DNA from: Podarcis vaucheri
Taxonomy: Eukaryota
Reading direction: 5' to 3' (one strand)
Assembly (NCBI GenBank): GCA_965113315.1
Contig: OZ220372.1
DNA: 64,000 nt
Every line of letters starts with the position of its first letter. Position 1 is the first letter of the stretch. The notes under the pieces were generated by a model that had not been told where the DNA came from, searched no databases, and worked only from the letters and a program-made list of their open reading frames with translations. Shown piece after piece: positions 29,345 through 61,900 of the stretch. A program made the translations under genes and the position numbers.

Positions 29345-29807
29345 GTAAGGAAGGCAGGGGAGCTTCCTGCACATGGAAGGTACCAAGGGGAGAGAAGGTT
29401 TCCCCTGCTTCAGAACTATTGAAAGGGTAGAAGATCAAGGCAGTTTGACAATACAGGATTGATGTGGCGTAGATGTCAGGGTGGAGATCAGGGTTAGGGA
29501 ACCGCCAAATCCTGCTGGGCTTTTAAGTCCATCCCTGACCATTGGCCCTGGTGGCTGGGACTGGTGGGTGTTAGAAGTCTAAGAACATCAGGAACGCCAC
29601 GGGTCTCCCTTCCCTGATCTACACCCTGACATTTTATCCACCATCACATCAGTTCTGTGATGGCAAGGTTGATGCTGCAGCAGCCAGCTGTTCCAGGCCA
29701 GCAGCTGAATGACTTGAGAGCATTTGTATCCCACCCTTTTCCCCAAGGTGCCAAGGAGAAGCCCACAAGCAATAGCACTCCTGACTCATGTTTCCCAGAA
29801 ACTAGTA

Positions 29808-30033
29808 CAGTGGTACCTCGGGTTAAGAACTTAAATCGTTCCGGAGGTCTGTTCTTAACCTGAAACTGTTCTTAACCTGGAGCACCACTTTAGCTAATGG
29901 GGCCTCCTGCTGCTGCCGTGCCACCGCTGCACGATTTCTGTTCTCATCCTGAAGCAAAGTTCTTAACCCAAGGTACTATTGCTGGGTTAGCGGAGTCTGT
30001 AACCTGAAGCGTCTGTAACCCGAGGGAGCACTG
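29808..30033. mobile_element. Tc1/mariner-type MITE family (about 230 bp), copy 1 of 8
   Basis: TA|CAGTGGTACCTCGGGTTA...TAACCCGAGGnAnCACTG|TA. Other copies are at 36688-36929, 43685-43918, 45087-45320, 46489-46730, 57549-57779, 58137-58367 and 59209-59434. Confidence 0.85.
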
Positions 30034-30185
30034 TATAAGACCTCTGACATTGGGGATAGAAAATAGCCAGCATGTCTAGGAGCCACTGATAGCTTTATCC
30101 TACCTAAATTTATCTAACATTTTTAAGGCGTCATAGTTGCTAGCTATCACAACATCTAGTGAGTTCCATAGTTTAACCATGTTCT

Positions 30186-33767: not shown

Positions 33768-34644
33768 GTAAGGCACAACGGAACTGAAAGCATGTTTTGG
33801 TAGGCTACAATGTTATACTGAATGGCACTTCAAAGAGATCAGAAATGCATTGGCTGGGTCCCTGGAGAACCTGAGGACCAAGCAAAAGAAGTTCCCCCTT
33901 TGGTCCACCTGAGTCCAACTCCACCCATCAGATATCTCTCTTAATTAGGAGGGTGTCATAGCTCTAATTTACTTGTTCATTCTAATGATTATGTTTATGT
34001 AAGTCAATATATCATCTTATTTTACAATAGATATTTACCGTATGCCAATCAGTAGATTTATTGATTGAGATCTATGGGTATAGGACGATATACGTATTTA
34101 ACAAAAATTAAAATAAAATAGATACACAGAGAGAGACATGCACACAGAAACGCACTCATGCATATGTATGGACACATACACCATCCATCCCTTTCTCCTA
34201 GCCACATTCTGGATTGGTTGAGAAAGGATGTGGAGAAGCCAGTTTGTACCACACTAAGCAGACACCTGGGTGTTTCTTTAATTCAGATGGAGAAACACTT
34301 GTTTTATAGAATGACTAGATAAAATGGAGGGCCCTTTAATACAAGGATGGGGAAGCAGTGTTGAAGAATAGTGAGGTAGGACATGGCTCCTAATATCACA
34401 TTTGCCAATTGCATGGAAAGAGAAATAAAGTTTCCGTCCTCTCCTAATGCTTTTGGTGCTGAATCTCCACCCCTCTGTCTGCCTACTTAAACAGACTAAA
34501 ATACTTTTCACAATGTACAGTCCTTCCTGGACTCTAACATTTCAGAACTCAGGAGGGGTATCTTATTTACGCAGGCTCATTGGTGTGATAAAAAAGCTCC
34601 CTGCATGTGTGAGGAAAGCACCTAAATGATGATTCCCTTTACAG

Positions 34645-35325
34645 GCTGACACCTGTTCAGGGCTACAAGGATTCCTGATTTTCCACAGCTTCGGAGGAGG
34701 CACAGGTTCTGGCTTTACCTCCCTGCTGATGGAGCGCCTGTCTGTGGACTATGGCAAGAAGTCCAAGCTGGAGTTTGCCATCTACCCAGCCCCCCAGGTT
34801 TCCACTGCGGTGGTGGAGCCCTACAATTCTATCCTGACCACCCACACCACCTTGGAGCATTCCGACTGTGCCTTCATGGTGGACAATGAGGCCATCTACG
34901 ACATCTGCCGACGCAATCTGGACATTGAGCGCCCCACGTACACCAACCTGAACCGCCTCATCAGCCAGATTGTCTCCTCCATCACCGCTTCCCTGCGTTT
35001 CGACGGCGCCCTCAACGTGGACTTGACTGAGTTCCAGACCAACCTGGTGCCTTACCCTCGCATCCACTTCCCCTTGGTGACCTATGCGCCCATCATCTCC
35101 TCCGAGAGGGCTTACCACGAGCAGCTCTCCGTGGCCGAAATCACCAGCTCCTGCTTTGAACCCAACAACCAGATGGTGAAATGCGACCCCCGCCATGGGA
35201 AGTACATGGCCTGCTGCATGCTCTACCGAGGTGATGTGGTGCCCAAAGACGTCAACGTAGCCATTGCTGCCATCAAGACCAAGAGGGCAATCCAGTTTGT
35301 GGACTGGTGCCCAACTGGCTTCAAG
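34645..35325 (+). CDS. Alpha-tubulin 8-like copy A, exon 4 (681 nt)
   Basis: TACAG|[23 protein letters not shown] (tubulin signature)...[11 protein letters not shown]|GTGAGG. Confidence 0.96.
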
Positions 35326-35621
35326 GTGAGGAGAGATTCATATTGGCATGAACTCTGGGTCCCAATGCAATCATTAAGGTTTATCAAGAGAGGAATCTTT
35401 GGAAAAGATTCAGAAAAGGGCTTTTTCTGAACATCTGAAGCTTTTTACTTTAGAAAAAAAGCAGATAAGGGGAGACATGTAGTGTGGAGAAAGGGGATGC
35501 CATAGGAATTGCTGGTGAACATACCTGTGGTTTGGTGATTCCAAAAAAAGTCACACTCCATCCCATTCCCTATTGTTATTTCCCGTATAAAATAGAACTG
35601 CCTTGCAAACTATTTCACCAT

Positions 35622-36480: not shown

Positions 36481-36687
36481 CAGTTTGCTCCTCTCTGTGC
36501 ACCAGATTGTCTCTTGTCTGTTTCTTCCCTTCCTTTGGGCCTTTGTAGACTTTGAGGGAGAAATTTCCTTCAGAGGTTCCGTGTGGAGGCTCATGAAAAG
36601 TTCCCAATGGGTCGGACTTTATTCAGTAACGCATTACAGGACAGAGTTAAAAGAGTTTGCGAGAGCTTTCTTTCAGAAAACACTATA

Positions 36688-36929
36688 CAGTGGTACCTCG
36701 GGTTACATACGCTTCAGGTTACACATGCTTCAGGTTACAGACCCCGCTAACACAGAAATAGTACCTCAGGTTAAGAACTTTGCTTCAGGATGAGAACAGA
36801 AATCGTGCGGCGGAGGCACGGCAGCAGTGGGAGGCCCCATTAGCTAAAGTGGTGCTTCAGGTTAAGAACAGTTTCAGGTTAACAACGGACCTTCGGAAAG
36901 TATTAAGTACTTAACCCGAGGTATCACTG
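36688..36929. mobile_element. Tc1/mariner-type MITE
   Basis: Same TIRs and TA flanks as 29808-30033, with the opposite internal orientation. Confidence 0.85.
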
Positions 36930-37705
36930 TATACGAAAAATATGTTGTCTTAGCTGTTTTACCTTCTGGCCAACCACTTCATTCCACCATGTTTTCACCC
37001 AACCACAGCCCTTGAAATGCAACTTTACCCAACCAGTTTCTTTTACTCTACATGCACAGCCCTCCTTGTACCTTATGCGGAGCTCTTTTTCACTCTCACA
37101 GTGTTAGGTTCCTCCTAACTGGTTCCTACCAGTTTTGTGGTCAGGCCACACTTTTGCATACATGATGATAGACATTCCTTTTGCAGGCATTCCATGTCAA
37201 CCTTTAACACAAGCCTGTGTCATGTGGGCATCCAGCATCATAATACAAGCCTACAGTGAGTCTTGAAATGAGTGAGCTGAAGAAAACTGGGCAGGGATTC
37301 AGCCTGTGTGAGATCAGCCTCCCCTGGCCGAAGGAGAGAATTGGGAGGCAGCCAAGGAAACCTCCTCCAATTGGGCGGCGGCCAGAGCAGGTCAGGTGAC
37401 TCCTATAAAAGCTTCCACATCAGGAGCAACTAGGAGACTTGGGCTGCATATACACCATACATTTAAAGCATATGTCTTCCCACAAAGGATCCTGGCAACT
37501 GTAGTTGATGAAAGGTGCTGATGGAAAATGTAGCTCTGTGAAAGGTAAACTGCAGTTCCCAGGATTCTTTTTTTGGGTGGGGTGGGGAGTGGAACCATGT
37601 GGTTTAGAATCATAGAATCATAGAATCATAGAATCATAGAATCATAGAGTTGGAAGAGACCACAAGGGCCATCGAGTCCAACCCCCTGCCAAGCAGGAAA
37701 CACCA

Positions 37706-40645
37706 TCAGAGCACTCCTGACATATGGTTGTCAAGCCTCTGCTTAAAGACCTCCAAAGTAGGAGACTCCACCACACTCCTTGGCAGCAAATTCCACTGTC
37801 GAACAGCTCTTACTGTCAGGAAGTTCTTCCTAATGTTTAGGTGGAATCTTCTTTCTTGTAGTTTGGATCCATTGCTCCGTGTCCGCTTCTCCGGAGCAGC
37901 AGAAAACAACCTTTCTCCCTCCTCTATGTGACATCCTTTTATATATTTGAACATGGCTATCATATCACCCCTTAACCTCCTCTTCTCCAGGCTAAACATG
38001 CCCAGCTCCCTTAGCCGTTCCTCATAAGGCATCGTTTCCAGGCCTTTGACCATTTTGGTTGCCCTCCTCTGGACACGTTCCAGTTTGTCAGTGTCCTTCT
38101 TGAATTGTGGTGCCCAGAACTGGACACAGTACTCCAGGTGTGGTCTGACCAGAGCAGAATACAGTGGCACTATTACTTCCCTTGATCTAGATGCTATACT
38201 CCTATTGATGCAGCCCAGAATTGCATTGGCTTTTTTAGCTGCCGCGTCACACTGTTGGCTCATGTCAAGTTTGTGGTCAACCAAGACTCCTAGATCCTTT
38301 TCACATGTACTGCTCTCAAGCCAGGTGTCACCCATCTTGTATTTGTGCCTCTCATTTTTTTTGCCCAAGTGCAATACTTTACATTTCTCCCTGTTAAAGT
38401 TCATCTTGTTTGTTTTGGCCCAGTTCTCTAATCTGTCAAGGTCGTTTTGAAGTGTGATCCTGTCCTCTGGGGTGTTAGCCACCCCTCCCAGTTTGGTGTC
38501 ATCTGCAAATTTGATCAGGATGCCCTTGAGTCCATCATCCAAGTCGTTGATAAAGATGTTGAATAAGACCGGGCCCAAGACAGAACCCTGTGGCACCCCA
38601 CTAGTCACTCTTCTCCAGGATGAAGAGGAACCATTGATGAGCACCCTTTGGGTTCGGTCAGTCAGCCAGTTACAAATCCACTGAGTGGTAGCATAGTCAA
38701 GACCGCATTTTACCAGCTTCTTTACAAGAATATCATGGGGCACCTTGTCAAATGCCTTGCTGAAATCAAGGTAGGCTACATCCACTGCGTTCCCTTCATC
38801 TACCAGGCTTGTAATTCTGTCAAAAAACAAGATCAGGTTAGTCTGACATGACTTATTTTTCAGAAATCCATGCTGACTATTGGTGATCACAGCATTCCTT
38901 TCTAGGTGCTCACAGACTGTTTGCTTAATGATCTGCTCCAGAATCTTCCCTGCTATTGATGTCAGACTGACTGGGCGGTAATTATTTGGGTCCTCTCTTT
39001 TCCCCTTTTTGAAAATAGGGACAACATTTGCCCTCCTCCAGTCTGCCGGGACTTCGCCTGTTCTCCAGGAATTCTCAAAGATGACTGCCAGTGGTTCTGA
39101 GATCACATCTGCCAGTTCTTTTAATACTCTTGGATGCAGTTCATCTGGCCCTGGAGACTTGAATACATCTAAACTAGCCAAATATTCTTGTACTATCTCC
39201 TTAGTTATTCTGGGCTGTGTTTCCTTTGCTGAATCATTTGCTCCAAATTCTTCAGGTCGGGCATTGTTTTCTTTATCGGAGAAGACTGAGGCAAAGAAGG
39301 CATTGAGTAGTTCAGCCCTTTCTGTGTCCCCTGTTTGCATTTCACCATCTTCTCCTCTGAGTGACCCCACAGTTTCTTTGTTCTTCCTTTTGCTACGAAC
39401 ATACCCATAAAAGCCTTTTTTGTTGCTTTTAACCTCTCTAGGAAGCCTGAGTTCATTCTGTGCTTTAGCTTTTCTGACTTTGTGTCTACATGTGCTGGCA
39501 ATTTGTTTGAATTCCTCTTTGGTGGTTTCCCCCCTTTTCCATTTTTTGTACACATCCTTTTTTAATCTTAATTCAGTTAAAAGTTCTTTAGATAGCCACC
39601 CTGGCTTCTTTAGGCACCTTCCATGTTTCCGTCTCATTGGTATTGCCTGATGTTGTGCTTTTAGTATCTCCCTCTTAACAAACTCCCAGCCATCATGAAC
39701 TCCCTTTCCTTTTAGTATTGTTGTCCATGGGATCTCACCCAGCACTTCCCTAAGTTTTATGAAGTCGGCTTTCTTAAAGTCAAGAAATTGAGTCCTAGTA
39801 TGCTTGGCTGCTCCTTTCCGCTGTATAGTAAACTTCAGAAGAGCATGATCACTCGCGCCTAATGATCCTTCCACTTCTACCCCACTAACCAGGTCATCAA
39901 CATTGGTTAGGACCAGATCTAAAATGGCTGTTCCTCTTGTTGCTTCTCCCACTTTCTGGACAATGAAGTTGTCTGCAAGGCCAGTGAGGAATCTGTTTGA
40001 CCTTATGCTCCTGGCTGAGTTTGACGTCCAACAAATATCCGGGTAATTGAAGTCCCCCATTACTACTATCTCCCTTCCTTTTGCATGCTTGGCCATCTGT
40101 TCCAGGAAGGCATCATCTATGTCCTCCGTTTGGCTTGGGGATCTATAGTAAACTCCCACAATGAGGTCTCTGTTATTCTTCTCTCCCTTAATGTTGACCC
40201 AAATGCTCTCACTTTGGCTTTGAGGATCTAAATCTTGGATCTCTTCACAGGTATACACATCCCTGACATATAACGCCACTCCTCCTCCTTTCTTGTCTGA
40301 AATAGATTGTATCCCCCCATTGTTTCTCTGAAATAGATTGTATCCCCCCATTATTACATTCCAATCGTGGGACTTATCCCACCAGGTTTCAGTGATGCCT
40401 ATTATGTCATATTTAGTTTGCTGTACCAAGAGCTCAAGCTCATCTTGTTTATTTCCCATTCTTTGCGCATTAGTGTACAGACATTGAAGTCCATTAATCA
40501 TTCCCCCGTGTCTCTTATTTAAGGATTTTTTCCTCCCACCACTAGGTCCGCGTGCTGTTTGCTCCATTTGGTCTATGACATTTGGATGATCATCTTCATT
40601 AATTGATAGACTCCTACCTTCAGGAGCACTGTCTCCCTCCCCCAC
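37706..40645 (-). CDS. CR1 ORF2: APE endonuclease plus reverse transcriptase
   Basis: EN motifs YTNA, ITETWW, GVYYRSP, MGDFN, LDLVL, SDH. RT motifs [25 protein letters not shown]. No stops over 979 codons. The track start is a GTG, so the true initiation site is uncertain. Confidence 0.95.
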
Positions 40646-40650
40646 ATTAG

Positions 40651-41724
40651 TCAGTTTAAAGCCCTCCTGATGAGGTTTCTGAGATTTTTGGCAAAAACAT
40701 TTCTCCCAACCGTTGTGAGGTGCAGCCCATCACATGCCAGAAGTCCATCTTCAAGAAACTGCAGTCCGTGATCTAAGAATCCAAACCGTTCCTGTTTACA
40801 CCATTTGCGAAGCCAGCTGTTCACTTGCACTATTTTCCCCTCTCTCCCTGGGCCACGTCGTTCAACTGGGAGGACAGATGAGATGACAATTTGTGCATTT
40901 AGTTGCTTCAATTTCCTGCCGAGAGCCTCGTAGTCTCTTTTGATCTTCTGGAGGCTATTGCTTGCAGTGTCATTGGTTCCCACATGAACCAAGAGGAAGG
41001 GGTATTTGTCAGTGGGTTTTATGATTCCTTGCAGTCGTTCAGTTACATCTTGGATCTTAGCCCCGGGGAGACAGCACACTTCCCGAGACATCTTGTCAGG
41101 CCCACAGATCACTGCTTCTGTTCCCCTCAGTAGGGAATCCCCTATCACCACTACACGCCTCCTCTTGGGTTTGGTCGGGGTTCTTCCGTGAGCTGTCCGT
41201 TCCAAGGTTGCCTGCACATTCCCTGAGGACTGACTTTGCTGCTCGTCTTCATATACCTGATCGACTGTAATGAGGGAGAGATCCTCAAATGGAGTCTGTT
41301 CTTCGTCTTCCATGCTAGGGGAGAGGACCTCAAAGCGATTGTGTATTTCTAAGCAATCAGAGTGAACCCTGGGCCTCCTACTTCTTTGAGTCACGTTTCT
41401 CCATATATCTGGCTCCTGTGTTGGTGAACTAGACTCCTTCTTAGGGGAGTCCCCTGTCTCCTCCTTGGTGGAGACGGTGTGCTCTGTTGCTTCCAAGAAG
41501 AGCTCCAGCTCTCTAATTCTTTGGAGCGTAGCTACACGTTCCTCCAGTTGCTGGACTTTGTCTTTTAAGAGGGCAATCAACATGCAATTGCTGCAGGTAA
41601 AGCTGCCTGCAACCTTTGGCAAGATGGCAAACATTGCGCAGGAATCGCAGGCGACTGCAGCTGTTCCCTCCCCTTCCATCTTGAGATCGTGTCGTTGGGG
41701 TTGGCTACAGAGGTCCTCCATCAT
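40651..41724 (-). CDS. CR1 ORF1: zinc-finger/coiled-coil plus SGNH/GDSL esterase domain
   Basis: CDSC...CSNC, then a heptad [15 protein letters not shown], then esterase blocks VIGDSL, CCLPGA, HVGTND, DGLHL. The first ATG is at 41724; the track start at 41772 is a GTG. Confidence 0.9.
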
Positions 41725-41857
41725 AAAAAGCTTGAAGACAGGACAAATAACTTCCCCCACACAAAAAAACACCTAGATCTCCCCCAACAAACGTTTGAGA
41801 CTAGCTCCCCTAAATCTAAAAGATGGATCTAACTGCGCGCGCCGCTAGGCGCGCGCC

Positions 41858-43551
41858 GCTGCCCTGCAAACTCTGATAAGCTCCTCCCACAGCTAATCCC
41901 CTGCCTCAACAGAAACCCTGCCCCCTCTGACCTTTACACAGGGAAAACAGCTAATGAGCCACAAAGAAAGAAACACACACACACAAGAAAACCCTTTTTG
42001 CTCCTTCTTCAACTGCTGCCCTGCAAACTCTGATAAGCTCCTCCCACAGCTAATCCCCTGCCTCAACAGAAACCCTGCCCCCTCTGACCTTTACACAGGG
42101 AAAACAGCTAATGAGCCACAAAGAAACACACACACACAAGAAAACCCTTTTTGCTCCTTCTTCAACTGCTGCCCTGCAAACTCTGATAAGCTCCTCCCAC
42201 AGCTAATCCCCTGCCTCAACAGAAACCCTGCCCCCTCTGACCTTTACACAGGGAAAACAGCTAATGAGCCACAAAGAAACACACACACACAAGAAAACCC
42301 TTTTTGCTCCTTCTTCAACTGCTGCCCTGCAAACTCTGATAAGCTCCTCCCACAGCTAATCCCCTGCCTCAACAGAAACCCTGCCCCCTCTGACCTTTAC
42401 ACAGGGAAAACAGCTAATGAGCCACAAAGAAACACACACACACAAGAAAACCCTTTTTGCTCCTTCTTCAACTGCTGCCCTGCAAACTCTGATAAGCTCC
42501 TCCCACAGCTAATCCCCTGCCTCAACAGAAACCCTGCCCCCTCTGACCTTTACACAGGGAAAACAGCTAATGAGCCACAAAGAAACACACACACACAAGA
42601 AAACCCTTTTTGCTCCTTCTTCAACTGCTGCCCTGCAAACTCTGATAAGCTCCTCCCACAGCTAATCCCCTGCCTCAACAGAAACCCTGCCCCCTCTGAC
42701 CTTTACACAGGGAAAACAGCTAATGAGCCACAAAGAAACACACACACACAAGAAAACCCTTTTTGCTCCTTCTTCAACTGCTGCCCTGCAAACTCTGATA
42801 AGCTCCTCCCACAGCTAATCCCCTGCCTCAACAGAAACCCTGCCCCCTCTGACCTTTACACAGGGAAAACAGCTAATGAGCCACAAAGAAACACACACAC
42901 ACAAGAAAACCCTTTTTGCTCCTTCTTCAACTGCTGCCCTGCAAACTCTGATAAGCTCCTCCCACAGCTAATCCCCTGCCTCAACAGAAACCCTGCCCCC
43001 TCTGACCTTTACACAGGGAAAACAGCTAATGAGCCACAAAGAAACACACACACACAAGAAAACCCTTTTTGCTCCTTCTTCAACTGCTGCCCTGCAAACT
43101 CTGATAAGCTCCTCCCACAGCTAATCCCCTGCCTCAACAGAAACCCTGCCCCCTCTGACCTTTACACAGGGAAAACAGCTAATGAGCCACAAAGAAACAC
43201 ACACACACAAGAAAACCCTTTTTGCTCCTTCTTCAACTGCTGCCCTGCAAACTCTGATAAGCTCCTCCCACAGCTAATCCCCTGCCTCAACAGAAACCCT
43301 GCCCCCTCTGACCTTTACACAGGGAAAACAGCTAATGAGCCACAAAGAAAGAAACACACACACACAAGAAAACCCTTTTTGCTCCTTCTTCAACTGCTGC
43401 CCTGCAAACTCTGATAAGCTCCTCCCACAGCTAATCCCCTGCCTCAACAGAAACCCTGCCCCCTCTGACCTTTACACAGGGAAAACAGCTAATGAGCCAC
43501 AAAGAAAGAAACACACACACACACACACACACACACAAGAAAACCCTTTTT
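41858..43551. repeat. Tandem array of about 11 near-identical 153-bp monomers forming the CR1 5' UTR
   Basis: Unit starts at 41861, 42018, 42171, 42324, 42477, 42630, 42783, 42936, 43089, 43242 and 43399. Two units are 157 bp because of an extra AAAG. The last unit is partial and has an expanded (AC)n. Confidence 0.97.
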
Positions 43552-43684
43552 AACTGTGCTTTAAATGTATGTGCTTTAAACTGTGGTTTAAACTGTGGTT
43601 TAACTGTGCTTTAAATGTATGGTGTATGTCTAACCCTGATTTTGTTGAAGACAAACCACTTTCTGAGTTCGGCTCTCAGCTGTA

Positions 43685-46600
43685 CAGTGGTACCTCGGGT
43701 TACATATACTTCAGGTTACATACGCTTCAGGTTACAGACTCCGCTAACCCAGAAATAATACCTCGGGTTAAGAACTTTGCTTCAGGATGAGAACAGAAAT
43801 CGTGCTCTGGCGGCAGCAGGAGGCCCCATTAGCTAAAGTGGTGCTTCGGGTTAAGAACAGTTTCAGGTTAAGAATGGACCCCCGGAACGAATTAAGTACT
43901 TAACCTGAGGTACCCCTGTACACAGATGGGGTCTGGTAGCCTGGCCTCCTGGCTAAAGCACAATCCACCAGGAAATTATTCAGCACAGGTCAGTTTAAAT
44001 AAGTAGGAGCCATTCAAGAGCAGCAGAACTGGTTCCATGTTTCCAGGGCCCCTTGGGCACAAGCTATCAGAGAACTCCTTGCTTTCCTCCTGGCACCTCA
44101 TTCCTTCTTGGCCTCACTCCTTTAAAATGAAGCAAGTCTTAAGCAATATGGCAACCCCAATTGTCGTAGGAAAAGTATAAGAAATGTTGAACTTTTGAAA
44201 TGATGATTGCCATTTCATCATCATGGAATGGATACACTGCTGCCACACATTTGAAATTAAGCCCTGGGTCTCTACTTTAATCTCACTTCAGACTTCATTT
44301 TGGAGATTAAAAACGTAACCTTTTTGTATAGGCAAAGTACATAAATAAATGATTCTTTTGGTATTGTAGCAATAGCCATAAGAACATGAAAAGGTGGATC
44401 AGGCCAGAGGCCCGCCTCATCCCATATCATGTTCTCATAGTGGTCAACCAGATGAGGCAATGGGAAGCTTGTAGGCAGGACCCAGGTGTCACAGCACTTG
44501 TGATTCCCAGCAAATGGCATCCAGGGGCAAATTGCCTTTGATAGTGGAGGCTGAAAAAGCTTTCACAGCTAGTAAGCACTGATAGCCTTATCAGTTTAAG
44601 AAATGTGAATTCTGTAGCATTTCAAACAACAAATTCATATATAAAACGTAAAAATAGGAGCCAAACACTGCACACGTTCTTAAAAGATTACAATTTTAAG
44701 ACTGCAAATTGCTGGAATCTGTCTTTACATGCAGGGGAAGTCCCTAACTCACTGAGGGTTTGAGACCCAGTCTGCTACAATAACATATAATAAACATAAG
44801 GCAGTGAATTATTCATGGAGAAATTCATTTACTCCAAATTTACCCCAAATGTCAGATAAAGTTTTCAATTTTTGAACTGTTGCATGACATGATCATTTGC
44901 CTTAATTTCTTCATTTACTCCATTGAACAGAGAAAGCAAAACCCTGATAATCTTTATTTCTACAAAAGTCTTTAACCAAAATTGCTGCACTCTCACCACA
45001 AATAGAAATAGGTACCCTTGTTCCCGCATTCCCTCCGACACAAAGGAGAGGAGGTGGAAGTTATGTGGGGAAGCTTTATTGGAGTACAGTGGTACCTCGG
45101 GTTACATACACTTCAGGTTACATATGCTTCAGGTTACAGACTCCGCTAACCCAGAAATAGTACCTCGGGTTAAGAACTTTGCTTCAGGATGAGAACAGAA
45201 ATCGTGCTCTGGCGGCAGCAGGAGGCCCCATTAGCTAAAGTGGTGCTTCGGGTTAAGAACAGTTTCAGGTTAAGAATGGACCCCCGGAACGAATTAAGTA
45301 CTTAACCTGAGGTACCCCTGTACACAGATGGGGTCTGGTAGCCTGGCCTCCTGGCTAAAGCACAATCCACCAGGAAATTATTCAGCACAGGTCAGTTTAA
45401 ATAAGTAGGAGCCATTCAAGAGCAGCAGAACTGGTTCCATGTTTCCAGGGCCCCTTGGGCACAAGCTATCAGAGAACTCCTTGCTTTCCTCCTGGCACCT
45501 CATTCCTTCTTGGCCTCACTCCTTTAAAATGAAGCAAGTCTTAAGCAATATGGCAACCCCAATTGTCGTAGGAAAAGTATAAGAAATGTTGAACTTTTGA
45601 AATGATGATTGCCATTTCATCATCATGGAATGGATACACTGCTGCCACACATTTGAAATTAAGCCCTGGGTCTCTACTTTAATCTCACTTCAGACTTCAT
45701 TTTGGAGATTAAAAACGTAACCTTTTTGTATAGGCAAAGTACATAAATAAATGATTCTTTTGGTATTGTAGCAATAGCCATAAGAACATGAAAAGGTGGA
45801 TCAGGCCAGAGGCCCGCCTCATCCCATATCATGTTCTCATAGTGGTCAACCAGATGAGGCAATGGGAAGCTTGTAGGCAGGACCCAGGTGTCACAGCACT
45901 TGTGATTCCCAGCAAATGGCATCCAGGGGCAAATTGCCTTTGATAGTGGAGGCTGAAAAAGCTTTCACAGCTAGTAAGCACTGATAGCCTTATCAGTTTA
46001 AGAAATGTGAATTCTGTAGCATTTCAAACAACAAATTCATATATAAAACGTAAAAATAGGAGCCAAACACTGCACACGTTCTTAAAAGATTACAATTTTA
46101 AGACTGCAAATTGCTGGAATCTGTCTTTACATGCAGGGGAAGTCCCTAACTCACTGAGGGTTTGAGACCCAGTCTGCTACAATAACATATAATAAACATA
46201 AGGCAGTGAATTATTCATGGAGAAATTCATTTACTCCAAATTTACCCCAAATGTCAGATAAAGTTTTCAATTTTTGAACTGTTGCATGACATGATCATTT
46301 GCCTTAATTTCTTCATTTACTCCATTGAACAGAGAAAGCAAAACCCTGATAATCTTTATTTCTACAAAAGTCTTTAACCAAAATTGCTGCACTCTCACCA
46401 CAAATAGAAATAGGTACCCTTGTTCCCGCATTCCCTCCGACACAAAGGAGAGGAGGTGGAAGTTATGTGGGGAAGCTTTATTGGAGTACAGTGGTACCTC
46501 GGGTTACATACACTTCAGGTTACATATGCTTCAGGTTACAGACTCCGCTAACCCAGAAATAGTACCTCGGGTTAAGAACTTTGCTTCAGGATGAGAACAG

Positions 46601-46730
46601 AAATCGTGCTCTGGCAGCACGGCGGCAGCAGGAGGCCCCATTAGCTAAAGTGGTGCTTCAGGTTAAGAACAGTTTCAGGTTAAGAGCGGACCTCCGGAAC
46701 GAATTAAGTACTTAACCCGAGGTACCACTG
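43685..46730. repeat. 1402-bp tandem duplication with structure MITE-X-MITE-X-MITE
   Basis: 43919-45086 reads identically to 45321-46488, and the ORF track gives the same peptides 1402 nt apart. MITEs start at 43685, 45087 and 46489. Confidence 0.95.
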
Positions 46731-48461
46731 TATAATACTGTGTGTGGTGCATTTTTAAAGCCAATTTGCATTTACTAGCAGAGAAATTTTCCAGAAGCAT
46801 TTGGAAAGAGGTACCATATTTATATGCTTATGCTAGAAGCCTTCAAGCCGAGATGGATCAGCTGGAGTGCTTAGATTTCAACGAGGTCATAGATATGGCT
46901 GGCAGAACAAAAACCTCATGGAATGGAGAGAACCAGTCAGTAGCAGGAGGAGACAATTGGCACTTGCTTCACCAGCCACTTCCCAATTAACACCCATTGT
47001 TCACTCCCCATTACCAAGGAGCTAAACTGAATTTGAGACACATCTCCTGACCTCATGGGCTTCTACAGAAACTGGGAGAAACTAGCCTATCATGGGGACC
47101 CGCAGCAGAAGAAACATTTCAGCCCCAGCAGAAAAAGTGTCCAGGCAAGTTAAACAGATCTGCAAAATTTGGCAGCAGGTTAGGTTGAGAGGTTGTTTTT
47201 TTTTATTTTCAAGTTTTCAACTTTTTAAAAACAACCAGAGGAGAACAACAAACCAAGAAATACAAAGAAACCAATAAATGGAACAACTTGCATATCTGTG
47301 GATCAATACATAAAACTGGAATTAATACCAACAGCGATTCTCGGATGACGTTATATTATCAAAACATTGTCCAAATAGCTGCAATTGCTTTGATGCTATA
47401 ACGCTACATGTCACTGTTAGATGCCTAGGTAATAAAGGACCACCAGGTGGCCTAAAAGGACTGTGGCCGTACTTTATCCTGCATTACTTGTAGTATATGG
47501 AGTATATTTTTTTCAGCTATAGTTACTGACCAGACATTGCTATACCATGCAGATAAGTTTAGGTTGTTCAGAGATTTCCAGTGCCGGGTGACAATCTGCC
47601 CCTAGCCGCTGCCAGCAGAAAGGGTTAGGCTGAGAGCTGGTGACTGACCCAAGGTCAGTCTTCAAGGTTTAGTTAGTGCAATAGAGCACATATAGGTTCA
47701 ATTTTTTAAGGAGACTTCACAGGCTCCATCTCTGCAGTCCCCTCTCTTCTTCACAGTATTTTTCTTTTGGTTCAAAGAGTGGCCTTTGCTGGGAACTCCT
47801 GGTATCATTTTATGTTCTGCTTCATTCCATCATATGACACCGGAGACTGTAGTAACTGCCTTTAGTTACAGATGCTTCAGGTTGTGTATTTTCAGGTTGC
47901 GCATCGCGCCGAACCCGGAAGTACCAGAACAGGTTACTTCCAGGTTTCGGCACTCGTGCATGCGCAGAAGCACTAAATCGTGCTTTGTGCATGCGCACAA
48001 GCGCCAAATTGCAACCCGCGCCTGCGCAGATGCGGTGCTGCGGGTTGCGAACGCTGCGGGTTGTGAACGTGCCTGCCACAAGGATCACGTTCGCAACCTG
48101 AGCATCCACTGTATAATGTTTTTATATATGTTGGAAGCTGCCCAGAGCGGCTGTGGCCACCCAGTAAGATGTGTGGGGCATAAATACTAAAACTATCGCT
48201 AAGGAATGGGATGTCCCTATTTTGATAGCAGAAATGTTGGAAGGTATGCTACCCATAGACATCGGTCCCTAAAGAGCCAGTGGAATGTATTCAATAGCAG
48301 CCACTAGCCGCTGAAGGCCATTAAAGAAAGCGGTCAAGCTAGACAAAAGCCCAGAGGACAGGATCTTAATCAGAAGTCTGTGTGACATGCTGGAAAACAC
48401 ACAAAATGCACAGAGAGTGGAAGAGCAGTGCACTGTTTATCTGCCTCTATGTCGGAGCCTG

Positions 48462-48685: not shown

Positions 48686-48688
48686 ATG
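48686..48688 (+). CDS. TUBA8: TUBA8 copy B, exon 1 (ATG only)
   Basis: GCATT-ATG|GTAAGC. Nearly the same distance from the shared promoter block as in copy A (224 vs 217 nt). Confidence 0.75.
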
Positions 48689-55855: not shown

Positions 55856-56741
<886 letters not shown>

Positions 56742-57048: not shown

Positions 57049-58624
57049 CCAATAATAATAATGGTGACAAAAGTGTTGTTTGTATGTGCTGCAGTCATAC
57101 CAAGAGTCATTTTTTGAGTGGACCCTTGTGGCTGGGAACTGCATTTGGAGGACTAATTTTGCCCCTCTCCACCTCTCTGCTCAGTCCTCTAAGGGCAATT
57201 TTGAGATCAAGGAGGAGGAAGCTGACAGGCGCAGCCACCCCCACCCCCCTCCAGGCTGATTTCAAGTTGGAATGCTGGCAGATGGATTAGAGGTCCATTC
57301 ACCTGAACTGTCCAGCCTCCCCCATGCCGCTCTTCTTGGAAGAGTTTGCGGGGGGAGCGCGTGCAAGCCTAGCATGGAGAAGGGCCATATCTCTATGGCA
57401 GAGCATCTGGTATGCACACACAAGGTCCTTGATTCAATTCCAAGCATGTCCAGGTTAGGCTGGGAAATGCTGCCAGCCAGTGTACGCAATAGTAGATGGA
57501 CCAATGGTCTGACTCCGTCTCCGGCAGTTTCCTATGTCATTATTAGTATAGTGGTACCTCGGGTTAAGAACTTAATTTGTTCTGGAGGTCCGTTCTTAAC
57601 CTGAAACTATTCTTAACCTGAAGCACCACTTTAGCTAATGGGGCCTCCCGCTGTTGCTGCATGATTTCTGTTCCCATCCTGAAGCAAAGTTCTTAACCTG
57701 AGGTACTATTTCTGGGTTAGCGGAGTCTGTAACCTGAAGCGCCTGTAACCTGAAGCATCTGTAACCCGAGGTACCACAGTATGACTATTTTAAAAATTTT
57801 ATACCATCAAACCTTGGTTGTCAAACACCCTGGAACTTGTATGTTTTTGGCTTCCAAACGCCGCAAACCTGAAAGTGAGTGTTCCGGTTTGCGAACGTTC
57901 TTTTGGAACCTGAATGTCCGATGAGGCTTCCTGCAGCCAATCAGAGGTTTTCGAACATTTTGGCAGTCAAACAGACTTTCGGAACGGATTCTGTTCGACT
58001 TTCCAAGGTATGACTGTACTGCTTTCATCAATAGATCTCGGAGCAGTTCACAACATAAAATGACAATATAAAACCTCAAAATACATAGTAAAAAATAAGA
58101 ACCACAACAAACCAACCCTCCTCCCACTCATACGTACAGTGGTACCTCGGGTTAAGAACTTAATTCGTTCTGCAAGTCTGTTCTTAACCTGAGACTGTTC
58201 TTAACCTGAAGCAACACTTTAGCTAATGGGGCCTTCCACTGCCGCCGCGCAATTTCTGTTCTCATCCTAAAGCAAAATTCTTAACCCAAGGTATTATTTC
58301 TGGGTTAGCAGAGTCTGTAACCTGAAGCGTCTGTAACCTGAAGTGTATGTAACCTGAGGTACTACTGTATATGCAGTCCTCATCAGCTAATTTTTTTTAG
58401 GGGTTTCATGGCTGATTTTAAATGCAATGCACTTCTGCATATCCCAGGCATAGTGAAACCTTAGTTCTGTTTGTAGCTGTTCCCACTCTGCTTCCCCAGG
58501 AGAGGCTTGAGCTTGCTATTTGAGGGAATGATGACAATGGGCCAGTATCAGCTGAGGCATTCCGCTGCCCACGCTTAATTTCTGTCTGTACAGTTGCCTT
58601 TTCTTCCCTCCTCTTGGTTTCCAG

Positions 58625-58918: not shown

Positions 58919-61900
58919 AAATGGTGCTCCTGGCAGCTCTTCATTGCACTGGGAATACAGCTCACCAAACTCTTTGCTGCCCAGCAGCTTCTGATCATTT
59001 CATGGGGGGTGGATGGAGGAATGGACAGTGGAAGGGTTTGGTGGATTGGACCCTGTGCCTACTCCTGCAGCATATGTAAAAAATAGACCATCCATCTGCA
59101 AAAAAACAATTTCCAGTGACTTCCTTTCTTTATTATGCCTTATATTGTGAGGGGGGAGGAAATATTCTGCTCCTTTCTTAAAGCAGTCCAAGAAAAAAAA
59201 TACAAGTACAGTGGTACCTTGGGTTAAGAACTTAATTCGTTCGGGAGATCCGTTCTTAACCTGAAACTGTTCTTAACCTGAAGCACCACTTTAGCTAATG
59301 GAGCCTCCTGCTACTGCTGCGCCACTGGAGCACGATTTCTGTTCTCATCCTGAAGCAAAGTTCTTGACCCAAGGTAATATTTCTGGGTTAGCGGAGTCTG
59401 TAACCTGAAGCATATGTAACTTGAGGTACCACTATACCAGTTAGTACCAGTATGGCATGGGTGACACAGGACTCAGGGGCTGTTGCAACATCCCTGGTTC
59501 GGACTTATGCCTCAACTGTCCTACATTCCAGGTTCATAGCCAGAAATTCTGAAGTGAGGAGGCTGAAGGCAGTAGGGAATCATTGCAACAGATGAAACAC
59601 AAGTAGTCTAAAAGATCTGGAATTCATTTGTCTGCGTTATTTCTTTGTAAGCAATTGGGTAAAATATTGGCTACATACCTGCTTATAAGTCAACGAAAAA
59701 GGCTACAAAGTTGAATTTAAAAAGGAAGAAAGAACATTCCACATTCTGGAAGGGGGCATGGAATATCTCCATGTGGGCTAGGCTCCTATAGTCCTGCCTC
59801 CTCCTCCTTTTTTACATTGCCTTATAGCATAGCTGTCAACGTTTCCCTTTTTTAAAGGGAAATTCCCTTATTCCAAATCGTGAGGATTCCTCACGAGAAA
59901 AGGGAAAAGTTGACAGCTATGCTTTATAGCTACAGCAGCAGACAGCCTGATTTTCTGATACTTGTTCCAGGTAAAACATTTTCCCCATTTTATCTTCTTG
60001 CGATGTGTCAGGGATGCCTTTAAAAAGTTTTATTATTGTGCACTCGATTGTGCTAGACTTCTGTGGATTTCAGCCCCAGGTGAGCTGTTTATTGAGAATT
60101 CTTCCTGATTTGTTTGTACCCGCTTTGCAAGGAAGTTAGAAGACCTTGACCATTTATTGAGCATTCATTCTGATTTGTTTGTGGGTGGTCTCATGACATT
60201 GCATCAACAAAGTGTTTCTCCACCTTTAAGTGCACTTCCCCATCCTTTTTACCAAAAATAAAAATAAAAATCCATTTTTGGGGGAGAAACAAGTACTGTT
60301 GAATGTACATAAGTAAAATCTTCTATCATTTCAATGCCTTGGTACATAAAAAGTGATGTTGTTACCATCAAGTAATGTTGTTAATCATAAAATATATATC
60401 GTAAGAATATTTAAATATATATAATGTTACACAAGAATGTCGTTTAATTTTCTAATTTAGTGAGGCAATCTGTCCCAGAGAACTCTCTTCGATGGGCTAT
60501 TTGTAATTAAATAAAATCATTTCATTGAGTTTACTAAGTAATTAAGATCCCATTAAAAATCAATCAAATCAGATATATATATATCCCCGTTTAAACTAAT
60601 CCCAGAGATTACTTAATTTAATATCTCTCCCAGCAACATATGTGGATTTTTACATTTCACATTCTTTTCTTCGAGTAAGAAATTGGCATTTTTTAAAAAC
60701 AACAACCATAAATCTATTATCCTGTTGTCAACCTAATTATGTTTGTTTTATCAGACCTTAGCAAATTTTCTGATTCAGGAGGGTCTGCATTTCTCCTCAT
60801 GACTGACATACAGTGGTATGAGTTACTGTTAGAAGATTAATGATCTTTATTGAGGAAATTATTACATTTCTGTTGCTAACAATTCTTAGAATACACAGAT
60901 ACATTTGATGCTTGCAACACATTTATTATGGTGCAACTATTCATGGGCTACAGCTAGGGGTGGATGAACTTGTCAGTTTCATTTTCTCTCAATTTGCAAA
61001 TCCACCCCCCTGACTTGCTAAGTGCAGTTCTCCACATTTCTGCATTAGTTCCTTAAAAAAGGACTCATGAAAATTTATCAGCATTTTAGTGCAAATTTAT
61101 CCTAATATACATATTTCTATGTGCTATTTTGTTGGATATACATTTATTTGCAATTCATTTCCCTATATAAAATGCATTTTTGTATGTTAGTTTCACCAAT
61201 ATATGCATTTTTATGTATGCTTTACCCTGGCACATACATTTTTGTACACATTACTTGGCTTGAAAACCACACTGCAAAATTCAGAGAAGTGTAACTTTTG
61301 AAAGAGGGCTGTGTTTCATTTTGTGTATTGCTCCTGAAAGCACAGGTTTGATAGATTCATCTTTACGTGAATGAAATGGATGAAATTTCCCCCTCACCCC
61401 TAACTACTGTCCATCAGGTGCATGAAATGGCATCTTGAGTTACAGGAACCAAATCTACATAGTTGTGGGGGGGGGCTTGTAAACATGAAAGTCAGCAAGA
61501 AATAAAATGTAGAAAGGGACAGACCTTGATAATGGCCTTATTAACAGGGACTATTCACTGTGGCAAACCCAGACACCGGTTCTTGTCTCCCGATCTACTG
61601 TGGCAGCACCTTTGGGGAATATTCCATTTCTGAATTTCCTGAATGCATCCCCTTTGCCTCTGCGACTCTATGAAACGAAACTTTTGTCAAGCTACCTAAC
61701 ATGAGGGCTGGGGAAATGCCATGTTCTGTATAGTCTGAAGCAGTCAGGTGGTCAAACTGGTGAGGACATTTTTTAACCCCTCAGTATTTGGCACACTGGG
61801 TCTCTCCTAGCCCTATTAGGAGATGCAGGGAAATTCAGCCTTTGATCTTCTGCATGCAAATCATGCGGTCTCCCACTAAACCACAGCCTTAGCACATTAA

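Follow-up and report, generated by a model that had tools for sequence, protein, structure and literature searches.

A 153-bp tandem repeat lies ahead of the first open reading frame of a LINE in the window, by which we mean the whole 64,000-nucleotide stretch of Podarcis vaucheri contig OZ220372.1 (GCA_965113315.1) analysed here. Are these units promoter monomers comparable to those of mouse L1, or are they a passenger of the element?

A monomer array ahead of ORF1

TRF over the window reports a period of 153, 10.8 copies and 99% matches at 41858-43519. In the assembly, eleven unit starts fall within 41858-43551: eight identical 153-bp units, two of 157 bp that are lengthened by an extra GAAA, and, on the outside, a partial unit that has a longer CA tract and ends at 43551. 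These results bear out an earlier note on this DNA, made from the sequence alone, which had described about 11 near-identical 153-bp units with a partial unit at the element's 5' junction. The same note placed the array about 135 nt from the first ORF1 ATG and beside a doubled GC box; counted from the array, the ATG lies 134 nt into the body, and the box is at 41835-41856. Divided in the register of the family, the array consists of 10 full units, one 5'-cut unit and a 17-bp remnant (Table 1).

The 3' end of CR1 elements is defined by short tandem octamers, and the element carrying the array ends in a (ATTCTATG)n tail of 5.5 copies with no poly(A). Given this tail, an open ORF1 of the esterase type and an open ORF2 encoding endonuclease and reverse transcriptase, we identify the element as CR1 by its anatomy. 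An esterase-type ORF1 is treated as a CR1 trait in excerpts of PMC13343379. The segments 37450-37604 and 43552-43627, which contain the arms of a 21-bp inverted repeat, are likely an older short element split by the CR1 insertion.

Table 1. Coordinates of the CR1 element, its monomer array and neighbouring features in the window.
Feature	Position	Strand	Basis or remark
3' UTR and (ATTCTATG)n tail	37605..37705	-	Repeat finding
ORF2, endonuclease and reverse transcriptase, open, 1007 aa stop to stop	37706..40729	-	PF03372, PF00078
ORF1, GDSL/SGNH esterase type, open	40651..41724	-	Profile match PF13472, E 3.4e-9
Tether, 133 nt	41725..41857	-	8 CpG, no upstream ATG
Hairpin, CpG-rich, 9-bp stem (doubled GC box)	41835..41856	-	At array-tether joint; family deletion hotspot
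17-bp remnant (unit positions 1-17)	41858..41874	-	Array terminally redundant; seldom a 5' end
10 full monomers (153 bp; two of 157 bp), family register	41875..43412	-	Repeat finding and unit splitting; register from other copies' 5' ends
Putative start sites (position 1)	42031, 42184, 42337, 42490, 42643, 42796, 42949, 43102, 43255, 43412	-	Other copies' 5' ends
Outermost monomer, 5'-cut at unit position 33 (A-run)	43413..43551	-	TG tract lengthened; element's 5' junction
21-bp inverted repeat flanking CR1, left arm	37450..37470	+	Seen directly in sequence
21-bp inverted repeat flanking CR1, right arm	43607-43627		Seen directly in sequence
ATG/GT, exon 1 of second alpha-tubulin gene	48686..48688	+	Head to head with CR1, 5.1 kb from array
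~250-bp element copies	29801-30035, 36683-36941, 43680-43923, 45085-45325, 46487-46734, 57539-57782, 58135-58371, 59202-59436

The window copy is atypical in its long array (arrays with at least 10 units occur in 5/100 sampled copies) and in its 5' end at unit position 33, off the preferred point of the family. Its array has no private changes where 3.2 are expected. It is a 5'-cut, probably recently expanded family member.

Tandem 5' units throughout a young CR1 family

A 24-mer from the tether has 955 exact matches in the genome and a 27-mer from the unit has 3930, with no match for the reversed control of either; some 955 copies thus extend into the 5' UTR. In this young CR1 LINE, the array is the 5' UTR across the family. 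In a set of 47 arrays found through the unit itself (38 and 9 more), a CR1 body lies at the 3' side in 47/47, and the number of units in the family ranges from 1 to about 72. The earlier note had proposed to test whether the monomers always abut CR1 in variable number, and in the arrays examined they do: the monomer did not emerge as a CR1-independent minisatellite, nor are other full-length copies confined to a single unit. One apparent orphan array proved to be split by a 6-kb LINE insertion, with the CR1 body still joined.

For a sample not chosen by the unit, we turned to the 955 tether matches and examined the first 100, which all come from two contigs. Four of these copies were set by hand from their junctions, and one (at least 35 units, with its end beyond the fetched stretch) was omitted from the end counts. 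Units are present in 92/100 sampled copies (mean 3.3, median 2), and both ORFs are open in 39/100. Median body divergence is 1.3%, and the window copy differs by 0.6% from its nearest sampled relative.

Two observations concern the surroundings of individual copies. A 6.1-kb LINE lies inside a 22-unit array (L080:5305-end and L084:1-4776; G000:C1, 24.148-24.154 Mb) and has two open frames (659 and 1159 aa), an endonuclease-reverse transcriptase by Pfam, a (TTTGA)n tail, a target duplication of ~14 bp and the CAAGATGGCG word near its 5' end. A full-length CR1 copy (L035; G000:C26, 95.197 Mb) sits inside a degenerate (CCCTAA)n telomere-like tract.

5' ends share one register within the unit

A preferred 5' truncation point, which the earlier note had proposed to look for, exists. 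Unit positions 151-12, an interval of 15 of the 153 positions, account for 62 of the 91 array 5' ends (p=7.5e-41), with a peak of 31 ends at positions 1-3, directly after ..GAGCTTATC. Because so many ends share one 15-base interval, each unit likely holds a start site. Position 1 is the A of ..TTATC/AGAG.., and the C/A step at which it lies is the usual start dinucleotide of RNA polymerase II. The other 29 ends, that of the window copy among them, lie outside the preferred interval, five of them at position 73. Genome-wide pattern counts of 4167 just inside the boundary and 3244 spanning it, a gap to which mutation losses contribute, fit this register.

Individual junctions add detail. In two insertions the 5' end is duplicated, and both duplicate copies begin at position 2. 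These junctions (L086:5050-5110 and L088:5065-5125), in which the unit's first 23-30 bases are duplicated and one of which has a copied flank piece in between, can be read as traces of re-priming during insertion, with a template that behaved as if it ended twice at position 2. A G precedes the +1 A in 6/8 ends at position 1, a count that is confounded by target duplications and fits a copied cap. Target-site duplications are short and ambiguous, and at several 5' ends 1-3 bases are common to the element and the target. None of the arrays examined is preceded by a shared non-monomer 5' sequence. An early impression of a variant specific to the outermost unit (T at position 16) was not borne out.

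Raw RNA reads of a related species (four runs from two studies) cover ORF1 and the unit at 206-327 reads per run, and they cross unit-to-unit joints in 4/4 runs. Loose read ends resemble a tag, presumably a template-switch tag, and point to sense-strand RNA. Among the tagged ends listed, all are either within ORF1 or around unit position 100-110 and none is at position 1, with the 42031 site masked; 20 reads end at 41932, possibly from one molecule. The reads over the unit and ORF1 may come from read-through of host pre-mRNA.

On the sequence evidence, it is very probable that the 153-bp units are promoter modules in one form or another. As to the form, we lean towards each unit being a putative promoter module that starts RNA at the C/A of position 1 and needs the rest of the unit downstream, and we favour this over a unit that acts from upstream. 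RNA would start at any boundary that is followed by a full unit, at about one chance in four per unit, so that daughters would keep at least one unit yet tend to lose the outer ones. The position of the listed tagged read ends, off position 1, and the 29/91 array ends elsewhere in the unit count against the downstream-dependent form.

Few copies start at the innermost boundary

The innermost boundary is identical to the others in its upstream unit and in its first 17 bases, and has the tether downstream; every full-length cDNA passes it first. From the innermost boundary outward, the copies ending at each number 3/95, 23/81, 12/50, 8/32 and 5/23 (Fisher p=2e-6 for the first two). When only copies that keep the unit end are counted, 3 unit-less copies stand against 15 with one unit (p=0.008). 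The simple reading of the scarce innermost ends is that a start requires unit sequence downstream, and they mildly favour promoter sequence within the unit.

Genome-wide junction counts (541 vs 360) had given the appearance of an excess of unit-less copies. The first 100 of the 541 matches comprise 72 with an upstream unit end, 20 from an unrelated element, seven mutated copies with units and one unit-less copy. The 23 unexplained matches are the 20 from the unrelated element and three mutated copies with units, and we reject the apparent excess because 20/23 fetched matches are an unrelated element that shares a 15-mer. Sorted in this way, the junctions are an independent check that agrees with the scarcity of unit-less copies. 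This abundant, young-looking, CpG-rich short element (L171-L179, L181-L185, L187-L192) has CAGGGGTCTGCAACC-type inverted ends, and we take it to be a hAT-like MITE. The 15-mer that it has in common with the CR1 junction is apparently a coincidence.

Another possible reading, to which we give less credence, is that each unit is an upstream promoter firing at the next boundary and that unit-less RNAs are made and rarely inserted; the CpG hairpin 18 bases behind the cap may then be methylated in DNA or block translation in cis. An upstream promoter predicts the identical register of 5' ends, and motifs are found where it would need them: relative to the next boundary, G-rich boxes lie at ~-51 and ~-32, AAAGGTCA at ~-61 and TGATTAG at ~-83. 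We assume that the boxes are GC-box-like and that AAAGGTCA is NBRE-like. The usual place for an upstream promoter is 20-80 bases upstream of the start, and the presence of GC-box-like and NBRE-like motifs there speaks against the downstream-dependent form. No TATA box lies at -30 of the boundary, which goes against the upstream reading. The three unit-less copies, all of which start within 3 bases of the boundary, and the strong hairpin at the array-tether joint are in its favour, but it needs an extra assumption to accommodate 3/95 against 23/81. An upstream promoter would lose at least one unit with each jump, and the array must therefore re-expand for the lineage to survive; frequent expansion in place would allow this, yet old subfamilies lasted with no more than 2 units in any of 19 copies.

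It could be the CpG hairpin at +18, and not missing downstream sequence, that accounts for the scarcity of unit-less copies. Both arms are kept at about 51-52 of 95 hairpin joints, and 15-17 deletions at the hairpin run into a unit, mostly at differing points. The GC box appears dispensable, because some hairpin deletions are common to sister copies. Unit-less starts occur in 0/9 box-less copies, a count that goes against the upstream reading, and in 2/17 single-box copies, and these numbers are too small to decide.

Truncation hotspot or independent repeat

It is improbable that the register is a 5' truncation hotspot, with the array a passenger and transcription starting elsewhere. Such a hotspot might arise where reverse transcriptase stalls at a G-quadruplex-like run, and a four-G-run motif is present at sense-strand unit positions 103-142. 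Microhomology joining is the other route, in keeping with the 1-3 target bases shared by several ends and with the five ends at position 73, which look microhomology-driven. A stall is disfavoured because it would strike the innermost boundary first, and this boundary has the fewest ends. In addition, positions 138-150, which border the G-run, contain none of the 91 ends, the predicted fold of the unit is not superior to that of shuffles (z=0.94), and the arrays lack a common non-monomer 5' sequence from which transcription would start elsewhere. The unit has no match in Rfam. The idea that the array is an assembly artefact, or its unit a minisatellite independent of CR1, is largely refuted and barely credible: the eight identical units of the window array and the arrays that reach 33-72 units, one of which spans an assembly gap, would suit it, but all unit-chosen arrays join a CR1 body, including the apparent orphan split by a LINE, and raw reads of the related species cross unit joints.

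Motifs and CpG content

The array in the window contains no CpG over its 1694 bp, and the words TGATAAG, TAATCC and TGACCTTT are each present 11 times, as the earlier note had described. Its further claim that the array cannot be silenced by CpG methylation is weak: 107/795 (13%) of the GC-matched 153-bp flank windows are equally CpG-free, and the adjoining tether contains 8 CpG. The absence is nevertheless stable, in that across the family 268/276 unit segments lack CpG and 8/276 carry it. TAATCC is not a constant feature, because only 2/12 old-subfamily units carry it. GATA and AAAGGTCA words are retained in old and young units, and TGAGTCA is found in 6/12 old units and 0/264 young units.

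In shuffles, GATA arises by chance in 6%, TAATCC in 1%, AGGTCA in 14% and all three together in 0/2000; we give these rates no weight because the motifs were picked after the fact. The lack of ATG in the unit does not reach significance: it is matched by 25% of shuffles, and by 9% where a one-unit leader is considered.

Array turnover and age

In a within-family tree, arrays of at least 3 units occur in 0/19 old-branch copies and in 38/81 others (p=9e-5). In long arrays (21 to about 72 units) there are higher-order patterns, and locus-private changes recur. Single private changes number ~25 against ~54 expected in arrays of at least 5 units, and 25 against 31 expected in short arrays; the shortfall in the longer class modestly indicates expansion in place. 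New units would come from slippage or unequal exchange inside the array once the element has inserted, and probably also from reverse-transcriptase template jumps that lead from one repeated boundary to another. The arrays of 33 to about 72 units, which have higher-order patterns (L069/L071/L072, L032/L170, L056/L057, L091 and L104), may show how a LINE promoter could turn into satellite DNA.

A broader scheme would make the array a self-renewing, methylation-proof LINE promoter, which we consider doubtful. CpG-free units would start RNA, and the CpG hairpin, the only nearby CpG cluster, would both disable the innermost start and make the reverse transcriptase jump. Jumps between the 17-base repeats would rebuild units during retrotransposition, and monomer promoters would have to be seen as a design that recurs among vertebrate CR1 elements, not as an oddity of mouse L1.

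Parallels with mouse L1 and other CR1 elements

Mouse L1Md A, Tf and Gf elements carry monomers and a tether before ORF1, according to excerpts of PMC6454616, PMC9022269 and PMC5381506. The lizard CR1 is alike in its tandem units and tether ahead of ORF1, in its variable unit number (mean 3.3, compared with 3-4 given for young mouse L1 subfamilies in such excerpts) and in a common 5' truncation point that is read as the start site. Older subfamilies have fewer units in the lizard CR1, and likewise in mouse L1 in the available part of PMC9022269. Very long arrays are rare in both, and for mouse L1 unequal crossing-over is invoked in the excerpted literature. The earlier comparison with mouse L1 monomer promoters thus holds for the array layout, the varying unit number and the common 5' end; promoter function is likely, and additivity would be a further parallel.

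The lizard element, with its esterase ORF1 and octamer tail, belongs by anatomy to the CR1 clade, so the layout arose independently of mouse L1. By descent the units are not mouse L1Md monomers, which have YY1 or AP-1 sites, given the CR1 proteins, the 0 CpG and the young units without TGAGTCA, although they would work in a similar way. They are 153 bp long and CpG-free, whereas mouse L1 monomers carry CpG islands in the available part of PMC5381506. Unlike mouse L1, the lizard unit lacks the YY1 motif (GCCATCTT), its register looks sharper, with a peak at 3 positions, and a CpG hairpin, often deleted, lies at the joint. Promoter activity has been measured in mouse L1, whereas in the lizard CR1 the promoter is predicted from sequence.

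Tandem 5' units have been described in other members of the group. Excerpts of PMC13343379 (2026) report species-specific tandem 5' subunits, in 1-5 copies of 100-500 bp and close to the 5' UTR, in ORF1-less CR1-group elements. In the excerpts the subunits occupy one legend sentence, and neither promoter nor monomer is mentioned; the lizard CR1, in contrast, has an ORF1 and up to ~72 units. For the chicken CR1-B 5' UTR, excerpts of PMC2734521 give measured promoter activity, and for turtle and pufferfish CR1 5' UTRs 32-bp direct repeats. The chicken UTR as presented there is a single ~240-bp sequence with E boxes and no monomer array, unlike that of the lizard CR1. The literature searched contains no account of monomer promoters in squamate CR1, and Repbase or Dfam entries, subscription papers and supplements may hold one. 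PMC11303007 does not mention tandem, promoter or monomer, PMC8665684 does not mention promoter and uses tandem once in an unrelated sense, and the available part of PMC6947457 has nothing relevant to CR1 monomer arrays.

The monomer-plus-tether layout of mouse L1 has arisen a second time, in a reptile CR1 that is active and has hundreds of full-length copies that are nearly identical. Excerpts of PMC6454616 treat the maintenance and re-expansion of LINE monomer promoters as a question still to be answered. The sharp register, the natural unit-less control and the CpG-free unit make the questions of upstream or downstream action and of methylation directly testable in the lizard family.

Genomic setting of the insertion

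The array lies 5.1 kb from the ATG/GT at 48686 of the second alpha-tubulin gene (copy B), in line with the ~5 kb upstream of its start that had been noted earlier, and the CR1 is transcribed away from this gene. The long exons of the two alpha-tubulin genes (34626-35336 and 55997-56707) are 97.6% identical and the other exons 77-81%; the likeness of the long exons suggests recent gene conversion. Around the tubulin genes there are also eight copies of a ~250-bp interspersed element with a doubled 16-mer (Table 1).
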